From a virus (Duplodnaviria > Caudoviricetes): a stretch of 64,000 bases of DNA. Positions 6,414 to 61,500 of the stretch are shown piece by piece (within the stretch, counting starts at the first letter, position 1; the number at the start of each line of letters is the position of its first letter). Position numbers and translations under genes: made by a program. The stretch covers positions 96,001 to 160,000 of the IMG/VR virus record IMGVR_UViG_2731957577_000001; one strand, written 5' to 3'. The notes beneath the pieces are model-generated. The model did no database searches and was not told where the DNA came from. It saw only the letters and a program-made list of their open reading frames with translations.

Positions 6414-8693
6414 TCAGAAGAGCGCCAGCTCGTATTGGCCTTCGGCGACAAGCTCTTTCTTGCGCTTGCCCTTGTTGTAAGACGCTGCGTCTTGCACCAG
6501 CGTGAACATCTCCTCGACATGGGCCAGATAATCGGCCAAGTCGAGGGCAGATATCCGGCCGGCGGCCACATCCTCTTGCATCTGCTTGACGATGCCTTGC
6601 TGGATGCGACGGACTTCCTCGATACCCAGCGGGTTCATATCGTACCCGTCATAGCCTTCAAACGTCGCATTCTGCAGCTCCTCATACGTCGCATTGATTC
6701 GCTGCCAGCGGCTCTCGATGGAACTGACATCATCCAGCGTGCCTTCGTTGACGAGTTTCTTGGCCAACGCGGTGATGCCCTCACCACTATCCGCCATCGC
6801 CCGCAAGCCTTCCTCAGAGAACTTGCCTTGCAGCGCCAATGCGGCGTCAATCTTGCGAGCAATGTGTTCCAAAACATTGGCCTGGATAGTATCTCGATAA
6901 ACCATCGTGTAGACCTCGACCGGTTGCGTCTGCTTGATCCGCCAGGAGCGGCGGCTGGACTGCATGTAGTTATAGGTGGAGTAATCCATCTGGTAGTAGA
7001 TGATGGTCGGGAACATGAGCAAGTCGAGACCCACGGACACCAGGCGCGGGTTGGTAATCAGAACATCCCAATCATGCTTCTCCATCATCTCATGCAGCCA
7101 GGCTTCCCGGTCCTCTTGCTTCGGCATCTGGATACCGTCATAGACACCAGAGGCCTTTAGGATCCCGACATTGTATCCATCCGCCTTGAGTTTCTCGTAC
7201 AGGTACGTGTCGACGCCATTGGATCCTGTGAACCGGCAATACACCAACACCTTTCGACCGCGACGGTGAATCTCATCGTCGAGCTTCAAGGTCAACTCAT
7301 GGTACTTGGTCGGAATAAACGTGGACGGATCGAAGTTCGTAGGCACCGTGATCACATGCGTGAGTCCTTCATTATCCTCATACGTGATGGGACCCCAATT
7401 CCACGGTGTATCCGAGTATTGATACAACGTGTTGATGTACGTCGACACATGCCGCATGCCACCGGTCAGGAACAGACTCTGACGCATGATGCTACCGATC
7501 TCGTCTTCCACTTGCTTGTAAGCGGCGAAATGCCTTTCATCCATCTCGACGAAGATGGGCTCTTCTCGATACGGCGGCAAGGCATATCCGAGGTCGGCCA
7601 GTTCCACAAAGGCACAGTTGCTAATCAAGTATCGGGAGAACACATGCGGTGAGACACCCGCACGCTCCCTCATGCCGGACTTCTTTCGGTTCGACAACGG
7701 TCTCCCGTTCCCCAGGTGCTGTTTGTACGAGTGTTCATAGACCCCGTACCGCTCGATGAACAGGGACAAGTCGTTGTAGCTGATGCTCTCCCGAAGCAAA
7801 CGCTTAGGATCCAGACGCGCCAAAAGGTAGAAGATGTCGGACGCCATGCCACCGAGCAACGTCCCGGTCAGCAGGATCTGCTTCTCGGTATGATTGATCA
7901 GCTGGCCAAACGCCTTGGCGCGGTCGGTCTCGCCGCTCTTGTATTCATGAACTTCGTCGGCGATGAGATACTTGAAGAACCCGCGCCGAAGACGCTTATT
8001 GATCATCCATGCCGGAGACACCTTCCGATTCAGGGAGTCTTTCTTGAGGAGCGCAGGCCGCCACAAGACAAACCCACATTCCTGCTCATGTTTCGACGGA
8101 TCCTTGACCATGTGCTTAGGTAAGTCCGCCGTGCGAACCCGATTGCGGCACACATAGTTCTCGGCCTTCATCGTGTTCATCCACTTGCCGTTGCGCTTGG
8201 TTTGGAAGAAGTGCTCATCGGCCGGCTCCTTCTTCCGAGCCATGAGCAGGCCGCCACACTGCGGGCAATGAAACCCGGTATCGGTCGTCACGACGGTCTC
8301 TTCTTCCCGACCGGTATTGATGTTGAAATACGGTTCTCTCCGGAACCGAATCCGAGCCTTTTCCCCATTGGCTTTCCGTTCCTTGGCGTCCGCCGCGTTA
8401 TACCGCCAATCTTGAATCGGCTCCATCGGATACGTCGCCTTTGCCACATCGGAGGACATGACCCAATACTCAATCTCACTGGGCCGATAGGGCATCTTCT
8501 CCATCTTCAAGACGTTTCGCCATGAGGTGATTTCATATACCTTGGCGCCAGGGACACGCTCTTTGATCTCCCGCTTCCACTTCTCGACCATAATACCGGG
8601 AACGAACACCAGCGCCCGGTACGGATCCACCTTGCCCTTTGACATATGCTCGGTGATATAGGGAATGACCGCACCCATCGCGGTCTTGCCTGT
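6414..8693 (-). CDS. SNF2/DEAH-like helicase, exon 2
   Basis: Begins TGKT (second half of Walker A); DEVHE, LLTGT and GLDL...QSSRRSWRI motifs. Confidence 0.9.
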   Translation of the reverse strand, partial: TGKTAMGAVIPYITEHMSKGKVDPYRALVFVPGIMVEKWKREIKERVPGAKVYEITSWRNVLKMEKMPYRPSEIEYWVMSSDVAKATYPMEPIQDWRYNAADAKERKANGEKARIRFRREPYFNINTGREEETVVTTDTGFHCPQCGGLLMARKKEPADEHFFQTKRNGKWMNTMKAENYVCRNRVRTADLPKHMVKDPSKHEQECGFVLWRPALLKKDSLNRKVSPAWMINKRLRRGFFKYLIADEVHEYKSGETDRAKAFGQLINHTEKQILLTGTLLGGMASDIFYLLARLDPKRLLRESISYNDLSLFIERYGVYEHSYKQHLGNGRPLSNRKKSGMRERAGVSPHVFSRYLISNCAFVELADLGYALPPYREEPIFVEMDERHFAAYKQVEDEIGSIMRQSLFLTGGMRHVSTYINTLYQYSDTPWNWGPITYEDNEGLTHVITVPTNFDPSTFIPTKYHELTLKLDDEIHRRGRKVLVYCRFTGSNGVDTYLYEKLKADGYNVGILKASGVYDGIQMPKQEDREAWLHEMMEKHDWDVLITNPRLVSVGLDLLMFPTIIYYQMDYSTYNYMQSSRRSWRIKQTQPVEVYTMVYRDTIQANVLEHIARKIDAALALQGKFSEEGLRAMADSGEGITALAKKLVNEGTLDDVSSIESRWQRINATYEELQNATFEGYDGYDMNPLGIEEVRRIQQGIVKQMQEDVAAGRISALDLADYLAHVEEMFTLVQDAASYNKGKRKKELVAEGQYELALF

Positions 8694-8950
8694 CAGTTGT
8701 GTTACCGTATGGGCTTTTTATCCCATACTTCTAACGGTTCATATTCCCGTTAGCTCAGCATACCTTTTCACCCTCGACTCAACGTTAGGGTGGCGCGGCC
8801 TCGTGGGAGCATTATTCCTGTTACCGGTCAGCTCCTATGCGTTGCCCCTGACTGGGATTTGCCCAGCCTTCGGTTCGGGTCAGCATCTCAGCCTTCCCGC
8901 TTAATTCCGCGCTATTGCCCACTACATTTCTGCAGTGGCGGGCATCATCT
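8694..8950 (-). ncRNA. Group I self-splicing intron (IA-like, 257 nt, no ORF)
   Basis: Removal fuses GEMG|TGKT in frame. The 5' exon ends in U and pairs with intron GCCCG (U-G at the splice site), and the intron ends in G. Helices include P3 GCGCGG/CCGCGC, P7 GCAUA/UAUGC, P8 CACCCU/AGGGUG, plus P9-type hairpins. Confidence 0.9.
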
Positions 8951-9925
8951 ACCCATCTCGCCCACGACGAAGCAATACTTCTCGTCCTTGAGCGTCTTGG
9001 CAACCCCCATCACCACGTCGGCCTGTGGCGGAAAGAGACCCGTGACCCCATTCTTGTTGGCGTGCAGGTTCACGTCATAGAACGCCGGCGAGTGTTTCTC
9101 CTTGGTCGGATCAAATCGAATCTGGCTATTCTCCTGAATCCGATCGCCCAGCGCGCTGGCAAAGTGGCTCAGGTACGTATCGAGAGAGTCGCAATCCTTG
9201 AGAACCGACTGTTCATCAGTCCGGCCATCATCAAGAAGTGCAAAGTCCAGATCCAGAGACTGAATCCCCTCGGTGATGATGTTCTCCAAGTCGCGTTCCG
9301 TAATCTGAAGCAGACCGGCCTTGAGCGGATACTCATTGCCATAGCAATGAACCGTCAGCTTTCGGAAGTAGCCGAGGTCGATGCACTGTTGAACAATGTA
9401 ATCCGCCCACTCTTCCAGCATGGGGGTGTTGTAACGATCATTGAGGATGCGGAAGATCTGCTTCTCAATATCCCCATCCCACGCCAGAATGAGTTCTTCG
9501 GGTGGCCGGCGCGGTTCAAGACCCTGTGCCAATCGCTCATCCTCTTCTCGCTGCCAATCCTGTCGAGCCTTAATGTTCGGCTTGGCACACTTGGCAACGA
9601 CCAACATGTGGGTCAAATCCTCGACCCGAGTTTCAAACACGTCAAACGCATTGCGGTCGGGCATGACGACATCGAAGCAGGTATGGCCCTTTTCGTAGGA
9701 ATTGCCTTCCGCGCGCCGAATTTGGCCGGTCTTAAAGTCGTTCATGAATTCGACGACTTGATGCACCTTGCTGTCGGCACCAATCACGTTGGCTAGATAC
9801 ACAGTGCGATGACGCCGCTGATAATCTACCACGAGCAGATCAATATACGCCTGCGCGCGCTGGTGCCGAGCATACATTTCGAGCAAATAGATCTCGTTGC
9901 TCTGAAAATCCGCCACTTTGAACAC
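8951..9925 (-). CDS. SNF2/DEAH-like helicase, exon 1 (spliced product about 1084 aa)
   Basis: LFPPQ Q-motif and CFVVGEMG (first half of Walker A) at the exon end. Confidence 0.88.
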
Positions 9926-9928
9926 CTC

Positions 9929-11179
9929 TTACATGAGTTTGTGAAATTGCCCGTGACGATCTAAGAACTTCACACCGATGTGGTAATACTCTCGTTCCTT
10001 GATGCGCGTTACACCTTCTTCATCTTCTTCCGTCGTCTCTTGCGACATCTTGACGACGCTCCCCTTGACCAGATGCTGGTCGGGGCCCGTTCCGATGTAT
10101 CCATTCAGATACCCAGACGCCAACATCAAGGCAACGTGACCTTTATGAAGCTGTGTTGGTGGTTTGGGAACCTCGTTATCCAGAACCTGCGAGTACGTCT
10201 GCTGATACGAAGAAACCAGGCTCGACCTGCGGATGAACGACAGCGCTTCTTCCGCGGTTACCGGACCAACTCGAAAGTGCAAAACGTCTTCTTGTCGTTT
10301 CGAAGGAACCTGATACAGCGGTTGCGCTTGAATCGAGATCACCGGAATTTCTTTGTAGGGACGATACTTATACTGCATCAGCTCATACGCATACTCGGGA
10401 TCCCGAATCGCCTTGGGCCGCTTCCGCGCAAAGATAATGCACTTTCTCTGTTCCTCATACTCTGCGTCATCTTGCCGATAGACCCGGATATCGTCGTACT
10501 GATTGGCCAGCTTGAAGCAAATCTGGCTGTCGATGAACTCCTTGGGCGTGACGAAGATGAGGATGCCATTCGGGGCCAGCTTATCCGAAACCAGATTCAG
10601 CAAGAACTTGTCCCAACGGTAGGTCACCATCCGGCGTTCTTGCTCCCGCTGCATCCGGCGGAAGGCAATTTCCCGTTCCTCGATGGTCTTTCTCACCTTG
10701 GCCTCAAACTTCTCCCGACGCTTTTGGATCTCTTCTTCGGTCAACCCCTCGTCACCAAAGTCAATGACGTCCTCATCTTGTGCCTCTTGTGCTTCCAGCA
10801 GCCGGCGGACTTCCGCTTCAAAGTCTGGAATCGTGAAGGGGTCATAGTCCCGGAAGATCTCATCAATCAATCGGCTGTCCACATCCGGGTTCATGACCAC
10901 CAGCGAGAAGGCTTCCGGCGTCACCTTGGACTCATTTTTATACGAGGACGTGCAGACCTTCGTGAACCTTTCCCGCGCGCGATTGGCTTGCCATTGATTT
11001 TCCGTGACCCCATACCGATAGGTCTCCGGGTGCATCCTTGTAATCTCATACAGCACTTCCCCATCGCCGCACCGATAATCCAGAGCGGTGACGGCCTGGC
11101 CCTCTGGGAACTTCAAATACGTGCGAATCACTTGGCACGTAAACTTGCTCAGTGGCTCATTCATCCACCGTGCGTACAT
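9929..11179 (-). CDS. Class I SAM-dependent methyltransferase-like protein (DUF6094-like)
   Basis: LDYRCGDG motif I, MNPDV motif-IV variant, LAPNGILIFV, HVALMLASGYLNG; paired with the helicase. Confidence 0.7.
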   Translation of the reverse strand: MYARWMNEPLSKFTCQVIRTYLKFPEGQAVTALDYRCGDGEVLYEITRMHPETYRYGVTENQWQANRARERFTKVCTSSYKNESKVTPEAFSLVVMNPDVDSRLIDEIFRDYDPFTIPDFEAEVRRLLEAQEAQDEDVIDFGDEGLTEEEIQKRREKFEAKVRKTIEEREIAFRRMQREQERRMVTYRWDKFLLNLVSDKLAPNGILIFVTPKEFIDSQICFKLANQYDDIRVYRQDDAEYEEQRKCIIFARKRPKAIRDPEYAYELMQYKYRPYKEIPVISIQAQPLYQVPSKRQEDVLHFRVGPVTAEEALSFIRRSSLVSSYQQTYSQVLDNEVPKPPTQLHKGHVALMLASGYLNGYIGTGPDQHLVKGSVVKMSQETTEEDEEGVTRIKEREYYHIGVKFLDRHGQFHKLM

Positions 11180-16721: not shown

Positions 16722-17442
16722 TGTTCATAGCGCCTCCTTTTCCGCGCACCTTGTCATAGGCTTCACGGGCTATTTGAACAAAGAAGTCGCCTTGCATCGA
16801 CTGTTTCTCTCTGAAATTGTTGAATACAATCCGCGCCAATGCATCCAGCATGATGGCGTTTTGATTTTCTAACTCAGACAACCCCTTGACCATCTTTTCG
16901 TTGCATTCATGCGCCCGCTTCACTTCCTCATGCAGACGCTTGTTGCGCTCCCGCAACTCCTCAATTTGTTCTCCCCGAACCTTGGCGAGAACCTCACCCG
17001 ACATCGTGTGGACCTCTTGCGCCTCATCACAGAATTCGGTGAGCCTGTGTATCTCCTCCAATTTATCCCGCATGATGGCGTTCTGTTGTTCTAATTCCTT
17101 GATATAGTCCATCATGTGTTGCTTTTGCGCACGAAGAGATGTCACTAAGTCAAAGGCTCCGATCGGACACTCACTATCTATGATTGATTGTAACTTTACG
17201 ATCTTTTGGTCGCGCTCGTCGATTTGTTCAAGGAGGAATCCGATACTTGTGCACCCTGACTTCGGGGAACTAACCGACCACGGATTCTCCAACGCTTCTT
17301 CGTAGCTTCGAGTCTCGGTGTGTCCATCAATAAACGTTGCTACAAACTGCGTGCCGTTTTCGTCTGACCTCACCGTAACAGGATGCTTCATGTCGTGTTC
17401 CCAGGCATCCCTTATCGCCTGTATGCGCTCGTTATCGTCCAT
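16708..17442 (-). CDS. Coiled-coil phage protein with an internal QNAIM repeat
   Basis: Start MDDNER; two LE(Q/N)QNAIM modules. Confidence 0.65.
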   Translation of the reverse strand: MDDNERIQAIRDAWEHDMKHPVTVRSDENGTQFVATFIDGHTETRSYEEALENPWSVSSPKSGCTSIGFLLEQIDERDQKIVKLQSIIDSECPIGAFDLVTSLRAQKQHMMDYIKELEQQNAIMRDKLEEIHRLTEFCDEAQEVHTMSGEVLAKVRGEQIEELRERNKRLHEEVKRAHECNEKMVKGLSELENQNAIMLDALARIVFNNFREKQSMQGDFFVQIAREAYDKVRGKGGAMNIDVC

Positions 17443-17705
17443 CACTCGTCCCCTTCTCCAAACTCGCCGCTCTGGAGTTGGGCTAGTGCTTTGTCGGCAA
17501 TATGTTGACAATCAGCTAAGGCATCAAATGGGCTATACACAGGTACATCTATCCATCCTCCAGCGGATTGCTTGGAGATGTCCTTTAACGCCTTCTGCGT
17601 CACCTTCACCGCCGCAATCAGTTTTGGCCCTACCTCGTATCGCCATCCTGCTTCTGTGATCCGTCCATCTTTCATCGCTTGCTCAATCTCGTTCAGCCAT
17701 TGCAT
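17442..17705 (-). CDS. Hypothetical protein
   Basis: Coupled ORF. Confidence 0.6.
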   Translation of the reverse strand: MQWLNEIEQAMKDGRITEAGWRYEVGPKLIAAVKVTQKALKDISKQSAGGWIDVPVYSPFDALADCQHIADKALAQLQSGEFGEGDE

Positions 17706-22565: not shown

Positions 22566-24137
22566 TCATCGTCTCTTGGCGAGGGAAATCAGGGTCGGGT
22601 GAACCTCAAGCAACTGTTGATACAACGACTCAAAGGTCTCGCGAATATCCCACTGCGCTTGTTCGCTCGTGCGCAGATTGATGAGATGATACGCTTCCCA
22701 CAAGTTAAAGTGGGCCACGATTCTGCGCCGATGACAGTTGAGAACGCAATACTCGCGATAGCCGAGCTCTAATATATCGTATAGGGCTTTGGCTTTCTCT
22801 GCGACCTCATAGACGATATCCTCAAGTCCTGCTTCCTGAATGCGCGGTGGTACGGTAATGCCAAGGTTTGCGCTCGGCCGGCTGAACACAAAGTTCGTTT
22901 TCCGGTTGTGACGAAGCAGCTGGTGCCAACTGGCTTCCGAAATCAGCAGTTCCGCTTGGTAATCCACCTGCTTGAACATCTCGGGCGGAACATCATGCGT
23001 CCCCATTTCCCACAAGAGATCTTGGATGGACTCAACCAGATACGATTCACTCATCGTCCGCGCGCGGGCCAGCGCCTCCCGGAATCGAAGGCCCTGCTCC
23101 TGAACCAGGACTTGCGCGATGATGTTCACCATTGCGTGACGTTCCGAAGGTGCCTTCTGAAGGCCCACGTAACTTACTTCGGGAAAATCGGGGAAGTATT
23201 CCGTCGTAAACCGATGTTTGATCCGTGCCTTACTCTTCGCCATATATTCAGAAGGCTCGGCATGCTTGAGCAGTGTCGGCAAGATCTTGGAGATCTCCTG
23301 CTTGAGATTGTCGGCGAGCTGATGAACCTCGGCAAAGTCTGAGTTGTACAGTTTGACAATGCCATCTCGCCAGGCGCGGCCGTTGGCTGTCATGCCAAGA
23401 TTCGTGAACATGGCCAGTGGCAACACGTAGCGCGCGTCTTCAAAGGCGAGCTTACGCAAAGCGACATCTCGCTTGGTTGATTCGCTAAGACTTGCCGGCA
23501 ACAGTGCGTCCTTGTCTTTGTCCTTCAGATGGTTGTACACGCCCTCAATCAACTGTTCAAAGGCGTCGTAGCACTCGTTCATCAGCAATTCAAAGCGCTC
23601 GTGGCGCGGATCGTCTTTCGGAATCGGGTTGTACCAGTCGCCGCGCTTTGGCTGCTGATACCGCTGGCTGTACTCGGTGATCGAGAGAAACTCATTCGAG
23701 AGTTCCAATTCGGCCGAAGCGAGTCGAGACACCTTTTCAATTCCCACATGCGCTACGGCGTGTTCGGCCACGGAACTGTGCCCGTAATTCACGGTCCATT
23801 TTTCATGGAACTGGGCAGCTCGCTCGGACAAAGGCTTGAGATCCAGTGTCCGTCCATCGACTTCAACATGCCCCTTCTCCAGGGCTTCACGGAGGAGTTC
23901 CTTAAAGGACTTGGGGCTTCGAGAAACCCATGCAAACAAAACCGCAACGAATTCTTCGGGCAAGTTGGTTACGCCATAGACATTCCCATCCAGATTCGTG
24001 ATGAACGGAGATAAGTCCACGGCTTCACGGGGCTTTTCCGTCGGCCGGGAAGCTCGGCTCTTGTTCTTCTTTTGCTCCTGGGTGTGTGCCAACCATCGCA
24101 CCTCCAAAAAGATGAGGAGAACGTCTGTCCTCCTCAT
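22566..24137 (-). CDS. thyX: FAD-dependent thymidylate synthase (tandem-domain ThyX)
   Basis: YGHSSVAEHA, EYSQRY, ARYVLP, QLLRH, LRTSEQAQWDIR. Confidence 0.88.
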   Translation of the reverse strand: MRRTDVLLIFLEVRWLAHTQEQKKNKSRASRPTEKPREAVDLSPFITNLDGNVYGVTNLPEEFVAVLFAWVSRSPKSFKELLREALEKGHVEVDGRTLDLKPLSERAAQFHEKWTVNYGHSSVAEHAVAHVGIEKVSRLASAELELSNEFLSITEYSQRYQQPKRGDWYNPIPKDDPRHERFELLMNECYDAFEQLIEGVYNHLKDKDKDALLPASLSESTKRDVALRKLAFEDARYVLPLAMFTNLGMTANGRAWRDGIVKLYNSDFAEVHQLADNLKQEISKILPTLLKHAEPSEYMAKSKARIKHRFTTEYFPDFPEVSYVGLQKAPSERHAMVNIIAQVLVQEQGLRFREALARARTMSESYLVESIQDLLWEMGTHDVPPEMFKQVDYQAELLISEASWHQLLRHNRKTNFVFSRPSANLGITVPPRIQEAGLEDIVYEVAEKAKALYDILELGYREYCVLNCHRRRIVAHFNLWEAYHLINLRTSEQAQWDIRETFESLYQQLLEVHPTLISLAKRR

Positions 24138-58519: not shown

Positions 58520-61500
58520 TTACTCGTAGACACAGAAGCCCACAATGGCAAACTTCACAGTATGCTTGCCATTGAACTCGGCTTCCTCGACGTCGGCCAC
58601 AAAGGCCTTGTGTCCGCTGAAGAAGGGATAGGCAGAGGCATAGAGACGGCCAACCTTGAGACCATTGAAATAGACAAAGGCTACAAGGTTGCCGGTGAGT
58701 TTCTCTTCTTCATAGCGGATGCCGATGATGCCACCATTCTTGAGGGCGGCTTCGACTTTCTCACCAGAGATGCCACGCAACACACTCATGGAGACGTTGA
58801 AGTGGCTTGGCGCGACTGCCTCAATGGTGTTCGGTGTCTTGGTACCAGAGACGACCATGCAAGCCGCCAACAGTTGACGCTTGGCCGCCACCCACGGGAA
58901 GGCATGGGCTTCACTCTTGGATTCGGCATAGGTCATGTGATAGGCGACATAGCCAATCTCTTCAGGAGCAAAACCAGCTTCGAGAGCGGCGATGGCTCGT
59001 TGAGCCTTCTCGACGATGGCACCGATCTTGTTCTTGCGTTCTTCCTCGATGCGATTCTTGCCGGTCACATAGAGCGGCGATTTATCGTCTCCATCGACCG
59101 CAGCCAGCAGGTTCTCGAGTTGCTTCTCGGAATACTCGAACGCCTGGGAGATCGCATAGCCATATTCCCGCTTGATCGGCGCGATATGCTTCTTCAACGC
59201 CTCGAAGCGCGCGGGATCCATGACGATGCAGGAGCTGAGTTCACCAAGGATGTTACAGCTCATGTCCTCCTTGTTCATGGACTCGACCACATCGAGGATG
59301 TTGGCCTCGAGATAGTCCTGAACATGCTTGCGGACCTGAGACAACACACTTCCAGTGAAGCGCCCTTCACGACCACGACGAGCGGCCATCCAGTCTGGAT
59401 TGAACCAGACGCGACGACCGAGTTTCTCGTTCCACACCGAGACAAACTCAGGTGGATTGCCGATGAAGGACAGCTCATCCTTCAGATGCTCTTCATACGC
59501 GCCACCATGCTTCGGACGGTCAATCTCCCAACCTTGGCACAGACGCAGGAGTTCGATCCAACGTTCATACCGCTCGATCTCCGCCAGCAGGTCTTCCTTA
59601 TTGCCGACGCCCATCGCCACCATATAGCCAAGGCGGCGGACGGCATCGGCCAAACGAGTCGCATAGTTCGTCAGCTGGCCGATCTTATTCGGCACGAGCT
59701 TGCGAACCACCCAAGCCTTGGACATGTCATGAATGGCCTGAATCAGTTCATGACCATACAACGTATCCTCGAACTTGAGTGTCCAACCATCCTGCTCCAC
59801 GTCATCAAAGGCAATGGCCTGAGCTTCGCCCCAATCCATCGCCCACGGGCAACCTTCGACCCACTCATAGTTGCCATCCTCCAGACGGCGGAAGGATTTA
59901 TCGAGGATGGCGGGATAGGACTTCTTCTTCAGAACCTCGACGATCTCCGCCTGTGTCGTCGCCAGAGTGGTATCACCATCATTATCGGCGCCACCCTGCT
60001 GAACAGTGGCAAAGTCATGGACACTCATGACACACAGGTTCTCAAAGCCACCCTTGGCCGCGGCACGCACATAGTTCTGCGGCGCCACGCATTTAACCAG
60101 AGCGGCTTCACCCTTGGCAATCGCGGGATTACGCATAAGCGCCACTTCCCGAGTCTCAATGCTGCGGCTGTCGTCGGACACCATGAAGACGGTGTTCGGA
60201 CGCAGACCGATGTGTTCCGGCACGATGACTTCGCCTTCTGGGCAGAGCCGGTGCGCTTCCAGAATCGCATACGGATCTTGCACCATCCAGCGATAGTGAC
60301 CTTCGACCGGAATCATGCCCTTGGTCCACATGTCCGCGATGTTCATCAGGATGTCCCGAGCGTACTTCTTCATCTGCAAGTCTTTCAGGGTGAAAGGCGC
60401 TGCAAACAAGAAGTGGGTGAAGGTCGATACCAGTGTCTTGTTCAGCACCTCTTCGGCTTCTTCGTCCTCCAGGCTCAGGATCTCCTCTTGAGACGGAAGT
60501 CCGACATACTCAGAGATCAACTCGGGATCATGCAGCATGTCGACCAGACGATCCAGATGCCGTGTGACAATCTTCTTCGCCGTCTCCGCGCCCATGCTCA
60601 TGATGTGCATGAACTGATACGGAAGCAGCGTGAACTTCTTGCAGTTACGCGCCTGCTTGTTGAACAAGGCAATGCGCAGGGTGATGGTATGCTTCATCAG
60701 GTCGATATTGCGATAATCGCCCTTGACAGCGCCCTCCATCGCCACAATGTCTTCCTCGAAATACTTCTCAAGGCCTGGGACATAGACCATCAGACCCTTG
60801 GTGAAGGGAGTAATGCGAATCTGGAACGCCGAGCTGCGGACATCAAATTCCTTGCAGAGCGTCTTCCAGACCCGAGCATTGCAGAACACCAGGCCATCAC
60901 CCACCGCAAACTTCTGCGGGAACTTCGCGGCATCAAAGACCTCGAACTGCTTGGTCTCCATGTTGAAGGCCTTGAACTTTCCGGTCTTCACAATGGCATG
61001 GGCCTGACGCGCCACACGCATGGTAAACTTGCCGCCGACGATGGAATACTCACCATTGGCATGCTCCACAATCTCCGTGCCAAACGTAATCGCCCGGCTC
61101 GGGATGGTGTTGGTGGACGCCAAGCCAAAGCGCTTCATGCCCTTGGTGATGTCCAGCACCCATTTGCCGTCCTTCTTCTTGGCAAAGGCGCGGAAGTCCA
61201 TGCCGATTGCCTCAAAGACTTTCGGCACCGACAGATCGACCAGGAACACACCTTGCAGCGTGCGGTCCTGAGATGGAGAGGCCATGAAATACTCAGCCTT
61301 GTGAACCCTGTTGCCACCCTTGATGAAGAAGCCGTTGTGAACGACATGTTCACGCATCGCTTCGCTCTCCGGCTCCATGTTCTTGAGGTTCAGGTTCACA
61401 TAGCATAGAACCGGAAGCACACGCACACCATTGACCTCGACGACCTTGTGAAGCAGAGCGTCCGTCAAAGCGCTCTGATTCTGACGCTGATACCCTGAGC

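Follow-up and report, generated by a model that had tools for sequence, protein, structure and literature searches.

The window analysed here, a 64,000-nt stretch of DNA, carries at positions 8694-8950 of its minus strand a 257-nt element which is very probably a phage-type group I intron of subgroup IA (IA2-like), inserted in phase 0 in the P-loop (G-E-M-G|T-G-K-T) of a SNF2-type helicase gene borne by a phage-like extrachromosomal element of about 200 kb. From its sequence, this intron is predicted to splice and is most likely the passively inherited remnant of a homing event. What is new is a member of an established phage intron family, while knowledge of the group I mechanism is left unchanged. 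An earlier note on this DNA had proposed a compact, ORF-less group I intron within the helicase Walker A motif; its coordinates and sequence have been borne out, and the identification is strongly supported.

Regarding the host gene, the minus-strand ORFs 8945-9925 and 6414-8678 are the two parts of a single SNF2-type helicase gene interrupted by the insert, as the earlier note had recognized. Exon 1 (8951-9925, minus strand; GTG start codon at 9925 or 9916) encodes an N-terminal domain of unknown family, for which Pfam and PHROG searches gave no family match, followed by the first half of motif I. Its ORF (9925-8945) translates to an end in C-F-V-V-G-E-M-G-R-stop, the last exon codons being GAG ATG GGT, ending at 8951 (GGU in the RNA). 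Exon 2 (6414-8693, minus strand) begins with ACA GGC AAG ACC at 8693 and is read T-G-K-T-A-M-G down to 6414; it supplies the rest of motif I, a SNF2-related domain, a Zn-ribbon insert and a Helicase_C domain. The junction itself lacks a start codon, and the gene call begins at an internal Met five residues later. Joining the exons (predicted spliced junction GAGAUGGGU|ACAGGCAAG, or GAGATGGGT|ACAGGCAAG) gives a protein of 325 + 759 aa (1084 aa), in which VGEMG is followed by TGKT and motif I is intact. By alignment, this product is colinear with the intronless homologue P0004 (1085 aa, AEMGTGKTP at the junction), with zero residues gained or lost, and with intronless homologues of 1072-1100 aa, exon 1 corresponding to their residues 1 to about 325. 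Moreover, a search with the exon 2 protein retrieved about fifty relatives (40-71% identity; 1057-1233 aa) in which both parts form one protein, most of them from contigs of about 190-230 kb. The search for intronless homologues suggested in the earlier note thus returned orthologues of 57-71% identity that are continuous across the junction, and tblastn on fetched DNA found the junction uninterrupted in L002, L070, L071 and nine IMG/VR loci. A megablast of the helicase gene against phages gave zero matches. Excision of the 257 nt restores a continuous and conserved reading frame, as is demanded of a group I intron. For annotation, it follows that the helicase should be joined, as gene calls split it into two unrelated proteins both here and in 12 or more further assemblies.

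The insert runs from 8950 (first bases AGAUGA) to 8694 (last bases CUG), intron position p being window coordinate 8951 - p, and all features below are on the minus strand. In P1 (8940-8954), the exon bases GGGU (8954-8951) and intron A1 pair with the guide UGCCC (8944-8940) across a 5-nt loop, with a U.G wobble at the splice site; this helix is short (4-5 bp), and the pairing of GGGU|A with UGCCC is the minimum free energy structure of a 46-nt segment. It is followed by the P2 hairpin CCACUGCA-GAAA-UGUAGUGG (8919-8938), capped by a GAAA loop, and by the 5' strand of P3 (GCGCGG, 8907-8912). The next domain comprises P4 (CGGG/CCCG), J4/5 (AA), P5 (GGC/GCU) and J5/4 (GA) at 8876-8899, and then P6 (CC/GG) with the P6a hairpin (GGCUGGG/CCCAGUC) at 8845-8873. 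The 5' strand of P7 (8836-8842) consists of an A, a bulged C and GCAUA, and its 3' strand UAUGCU (8757-8762) crosses P3 to form a pseudoknot. Between the two lie the P7.1 hairpin (GGAGC/GCUCC, 8806-8835), the 3' strand of P3 (CCGCGC, 8793-8798), the P8 hairpin (CACCCU/AGGGUG, 8769-8792) and J8/7 (AAAAGG, 8763-8768). The P9 (CUAACGG/CCGUUAG, 8731-8753) and P9.1 (GUAUGGG/CCCAUAC, 8707-8728) hairpins, an arrangement also found in Twort, lead to the terminal omega G at 8694, which marks the 3' splice site and is likewise a G in L072, L073, L186 and L153. The helix order P3-P4-P5-P6-P7-P8-P9 is therefore complete, including the P3/P7 pseudoknot, and is backed by covariation. The U-G pair at the 5' splice site, the terminal G and the P3, P7 (GCAUA/UAUGC), P7.1, P8 and P9 helices drawn in the earlier note are all present, and the helices covary in relatives.

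An additional P7.1 helix between P7 and the 3' strand of P3 is a mark of subgroup IA, and such a helix is found in the window intron. Within subgroup IA we tentatively place the intron, from its sequence and predicted fold, as IA2-like, its nearest characterized relatives being those of Twort (IA2) and of the Bacillus tape measure protein (TMP) genes (IA1 or IA2), with the proviso that the IA2 subgroup is itself heterogeneous (PMC11878797). J8/7 reads AAAA followed by two nucleotides in 20 of the 22 family members aligned there, the window intron included, L158 having AAUAUG and L160 being gapped. In P7, the pair 178-374 is G-C in 22/22 sequences, beside a bulged C or A at intron position 110, and P7 would accordingly form the guanosine-binding site next to the A-rich J8/7. 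The folding of the 257-nt RNA beats that of all 200 shuffles (z = -4.5), and that of the P1-P2 segment is likewise better than in shuffles (z = -3.9). No sense-strand ORF of endonuclease size is present within the 257 nt.

Two metagenome contigs, L072 and L073, provide a first comparison. Their helicase is only 55% identical and carries at the identical point a homologous insert of 310 nt, bounded as GAAATGGGT|...CTG|GTAGGAAAA, which aligns to the window intron over its full length, invariant core stretches alternating with helix changes on both sides. Indeed, P2 is CUAUCAUA-GAAA-UAUGAUAG in L072/L073 versus CCACUGCA/UGUAGUGG in the window, so that five of eight pairs differ in both bases and a sixth in one base, with pairing kept throughout. 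Likewise, P3 is GCGCGG/CCGCGC in the window and GUGCGG/CCGCAC in L072/L073, P7 is GCAUA/UAUGC versus GCGUA/UACGC and P7.1 GGAGC/GCUCC versus GCAGU/ACUGC, while P5, P6a and P9 show double-sided changes too.

Across a wider alignment of 23 sequences (A7), 97.4% of 1131 cells are standard pairs versus 72.8% in shuffles, and 48 of the 56 pairs in 11 helices show double changes (6/6 pairs in P3, 5/5 in P7.1), counts which are inflated since A7 was fitted to the structure of covariance model R1, described below, with P7 added by hand. None of 500 shuffles reaches any of the five measures, and shifting the 3' partners by 1-3 columns lowers pairing to 35-42%. Because a model-fitted alignment leans to its structure, P7 and an unfitted run serve as controls. 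P7, which is absent from R1, reaches 100% pairing, and two of its pairs covary (GC 13 / AU 9 and AU 17 / GC 5). An unfitted MAFFT alignment of 13 sequences submitted to RNAalifold recovers P3 (both strands), P4, P6a, P7.1, P8, P9 and P9.1, compensatory changes being seen in 34 of 42 pairs; these helices, together with P5 and P6, are also among those counted in A7.

The break at GEMG| is recurrent in this helicase family, since many N-terminal and C-terminal fragments end or start there. Another twelve N-terminal fragments share 43-57% identity with exon 1 and fall each into a 90% cluster of its own; read here as protein ends, they terminate in GEMG plus 0-1 residue, one of them extending nine residues further. 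On the other side, at least seven C-terminal fragments begin within four residues of the junction; P0024 and P0027 are called 17 residues in, yet their DNA (L072 and L073) breaks exactly at the junction. A further orthologue, L186 (IMG/VR UViG_3300018891_000001, a genome of 215,870 bp), has at the same helicase point an insert of 1096 nt (L186:1405-2500) with a double-motif LAGLIDADG ORF (Pfam PF14528, E 1e-6) inside the P1 loop, and its ribozyme scores 97.5 bits with the Rfam group I model RF00028 and only 43 bits with R1. It resembles the window intron in its identical insertion point (GAAATGGGT|ACAGGT), its U at -1, its terminal G and its GCCC guide, and differs from it in length, in the LAGLIDADG ORF and in a Twort-like, RF00028-positive core that makes it only distant kin. 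As the two cores differ, this one site is used by two distinct group I introns, of which only the L186 intron encodes a homing endonuclease. Hence, the statement of the earlier note that no homing endonuclease is present holds for the window copy but does not extend to the site, which offers a natural case of repeated invasion, being held either by an ORF-less intron or by a LAGLIDADG intron with another fold. The last Gly codon before the junction is GGT in 4/4 same-site intron-bearing loci, a small sample amounting to three independent intron lineages, and is GGG (3), GGC (3), GGA (2) or GGT (4) in 12 intronless loci. The GGT codon therefore supplies the U that is obligatory at the 5' splice site.

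With respect to known RNA families, RF00028 gives no match to the window at its gathering score, nor at E <= 10 on a 551-nt slice, and no hits at E <= 1 in six related loci (L150-L153, L072 and L073). However, it does find the introns of T4, Twort, SPO1 and SPbeta, and it has been described as incomplete for phage introns, which it under-represents (PMC11878797). This miss reflects a blind spot of the model and is not evidence against the intron, which is linked to RF00028 indirectly, through the match of R1 to Twort and that of RF00028 to the same-site L186 intron. R1 is a covariance model built solely from three same-site introns (window, L072 and L073); it covers P3-P9.1 with 50 pairs, P7 being left out because it is knotted. 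Over its full length, it matches 20 further genes that are split in phages and phage-like plasmids (E 1e-18 to 1e-59), among them the DNA polymerase gene of Alicyclobacillus phage MMB025, with an endonuclease ORF inside the intron, a DnaB-type helicase gene of Bacillus phage KLEB27-3, tape measure genes of the Bacillus cereus group, terminase genes, an RNA polymerase gene of an Aeromonas jumbo phage, a gyrA gene, YomI of Clostridium phage c-st and a SNF2/DEAD helicase gene of B. cereus pG9842_140. Checking against covariance models, as the earlier note had advised, therefore yields nothing with RF00028 but ties the intron, through R1, to Twort and to these 20 loci. A whole phage intron sub-family thus escapes RF00028, while a custom model of three sequences recovers more than 20 members.

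Short-word blastn also relates parts of the intron to the intergenic gaps of genes that are split in many phages and phage-like plasmids, the best match among phage records being the Alicyclobacillus phage DNA polymerase intron (78.6% over 150 nt, E 3e-26). Of note, this match corresponds to the 3' half of that endonuclease-bearing intron (L150:1540-2649; MMB025, PV686781.1). Scanning genome contigs and viral contigs for the exact P8-J8/7-P7 pattern returned 0 hits in either set, and the core is therefore not conserved letter for letter.

On four whole phage genomes, R1 matched Twort at 17016-17234 (E 7e-10), 17438-17543 and 59579-59735 and left the introns of T4, SPO1 and SPbeta unmatched, which places the R1 clade nearer to Twort than to these three. 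The first two of these matches fall in the orf142 intron cluster of Twort, where RF00028 scores 97 and 101 bits, above its cut-off, at 16973-17197 and 17248-17506, as opposed to nothing in the window. The Twort orf142 introns (IA2) share with the window intron the helix order from P3 to P9.1, the P7.1 extension, compactness and the absence of an ORF. Their 3' tail (..UAACAUAAUUG) is similar to that of the window intron (..UAACACAACUG), both following the pattern UAACA.AA.UG, and P9/P9.1 are similar as well. In contrast, J8/7 and P7 are different (GAUAUAGUCU in Twort, AAAAGGUAUGCU in the window), sequence similarity to R1 is low (36 bits), and the host gene is a tail tube gene instead of a helicase. 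The ribozyme structure 1Y0Q presumably derives from the second of these introns, orf142-I2. Self-splicing of the Twort orf142 introns is described in the literature that two publications cite (PMC11878797; PMC5526547).

Much closer than Twort are the TMP introns of the Bacillus cereus group, which reach 124-143 bits with R1 over their full length. Like the window intron they lack an ORF; they measure about 210-250 nt and reside on phage-like plasmids, and they differ from it by their tape measure host gene, a shorter P5 and P8 and different guides. Tourasse and Kolsto (2008) assigned the TMP introns of B. cereus-group prophages to IA1 or IA2 and related them to the introns of Twort and SPbeta (PMC2504315); the TMP loci matched by R1 are likened to these introns as a group, and not one-to-one with named introns. 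The same ORF-less IA1/IA2 introns of Bacillus prophages reach new sites through changes in P1 and the guide, while their core is kept (PMC2504315).

The best R1 match outside the orthologous site (188 bits) is L153, from B. cereus G9842 pG9842_140 (NC_011774.1). As in the window, this ORF-less intron lies in motif I of a SNF2-type helicase, after GGU. However, it is inserted two codons downstream (DGVGLG|KT versus GEMG|TGKT), in a different and shorter helicase, and its guide is GCCG instead of GCCC, having changed with the exon so that UGGU pairs with GCCG. About 285 nt separate its 5' splice site from the guide, a region without any ORF of 50 aa or more. At this locus (L153:2131-2675), the helicase is annotated, as far as visible, only as two ORFs.

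The earlier note had considered a helicase P-loop an unusual site for a phage group I intron, a view that the comparison does not sustain. Indeed, group I introns are known in helicase genes of Staphylococcus phages (PMC5526547), related introns lie in the SNF2 helicase of pG9842_140 and the DnaB-type helicase of KLEB27-3, and at least 12 other lineages of the same helicase break at GEMG|. More generally, phage introns are well known to favor genes of DNA metabolism and their most conserved motifs (PMC11878797; PMC2504315). In open-access text, we found no published description of an intron in this helicase family or in any SNF2 P-loop.

Members of the clade, which number 20 or more, occupy tape measure, terminase, polymerase, RNA polymerase, gyrase and helicase genes, in Bacillota and in some Gram-negative jumbo phages. 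A broader and rather doubtful reading, which we put forward tentatively, would place the intron in a large phage intron clade, compact, endonuclease-free and unseen by RF00028, whose members spread to unrelated genes when P1 and the guide are retargeted, with reverse splicing or borrowed endonucleases as the means, the P-loop being a hotspot at which two introns replace one another. As a further and rarer addition, conditional splicing may time helicase production.

If the window intron is catalytic and splices in vivo, as its structure would predict, P1 would form in the pre-mRNA between the terminal exon bases GGGU and the guide GCCC, its U.G wobble lying at the splice site, and folding of the P3-P9 core would include the P3/P7 pseudoknot. 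An external guanosine held in P7 would then attack the 5' splice site, and the released exon 1 would in turn attack on the 3' side of the terminal G, so that GGU is ligated to ACA. The 1084-aa helicase with its intact P-loop would come from the spliced mRNA alone, whereas unspliced RNA would give a 326-aa fragment ending at a UGA stop two codons into the intron. Regarding mobility, no second intron copy was found in the genome to which the window belongs, and the L186 protein used as query found no LAGLIDADG homologue elsewhere in it. Being endonuclease-free and the sole copy in its genome, the window copy is most likely a passively inherited remnant of homing at a repeatedly invaded site; as it has no ORF and its genome no LAGLIDADG homologue of the L186 type, its mobility has probably been lost or is helper-dependent.

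The early stop in unspliced RNA could also be read as regulation: the intron would be real, and its splicing, conditional on temperature, growth phase, translation coupling or a ligand, would act as a switch for helicase production. Environment-dependent splicing efficiency is indeed reported for phage group I introns in work cited by one publication (PMC10914365). This reading is nevertheless improbable, since Rfam reveals neither a riboswitch nor any other known regulatory RNA within the intron or beside it at the gathering score or at E <= 10, most helicase orthologues are intronless, and the same family sits in TMP, terminase and polymerase genes, a distribution that a selfish element fits better than a dedicated regulator. 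The proposal of the earlier note that splicing gates the ATPase activity of the helicase is correct only in the trivial sense in which it applies to any intron within a coding region, no regulatory element having been found by Rfam.

Still less probable is a decayed intron that no longer splices and leaves the helicase a pseudogene. The absence of an endonuclease, the single copy in the genome and the lack of recognition by RF00028 would all agree with decay, but RF00028 equally misses related introns in otherwise intact split genes. Moreover, the window intron carries the consensus base at 38/38 columns whose conservation across 19 introns of other genes is 90% or higher, all its helices are intact, both exons are full-length open frames, and in twelve other lineages, too, the two halves flanking this break remain open.

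That the helicase is naturally made of two polypeptides, the 257 nt being a structured spacer or a MITE, group II intron or IStron, has a negligible probability: gene callers do list two proteins (P0003 and P0123), but the break falls inside the eight-residue P-loop and leaves GEMG and TGKT on separate pieces, exon 2 lacks a start codon at this point, and the RNA has a group I core, with no transposase and no terminal inverted repeats noted. Of the other candidates, a group II intron is excluded by the short length and the wrong structure, an IStron by the missing IS part, an intein by the stop codons, the element acting at the RNA level, programmed bypassing or frameshifting by the 257-nt length and the conserved ribozyme fold, and an assembly artefact by the same architecture in independent assemblies.

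Finally, the window is part of contig C7 in a bacterial assembly of 3.6 Mb, within the phage-like element of about 200 kb. The helicase belongs to a replication module with ThyX, UvrD, a DnaG-type primase, an ERF recombinase, a DUF6094 methyltransferase and DnaN, and this module shows synteny with a linear 'plasmid' of Paenibacillus rhizovicinus (228 kb), a record that IMG/VR classes, like several relatives of about 190-230 kb, as a viral genome. Directly upstream of the helicase gene (6414-9925, minus strand) stands the DUF6094 methyltransferase-like gene (9929-11179, minus strand), a conserved gene pair also present in the P. rhizovicinus plasmid (L178:6749-11316). Among the 45 genomes of the host's own family (44 besides the host), no close helicase orthologue was found, only paralogues of 28-31% identity, and a helicase profile search of genome contigs returned one close intronless locus and many distant Dehalococcoidia paralogues. 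These distant relatives (L003-L055, about 30% identity) lie on MAG chromosomes of Dehalococcoidia/Chloroflexota in many copies per chromosome, for instance with seven loci in OY760135.1 and six each in OZ219805.1 and OZ219765.1, which suggests a multi-copy mobile element. Elsewhere in the window, a ThyX-like ORF (22566-24137, minus strand) is, with 523 aa, about twice the usual length and has two stretches matching Pfam Thy1, so that it could represent a duplication, a fusion or an insertion.
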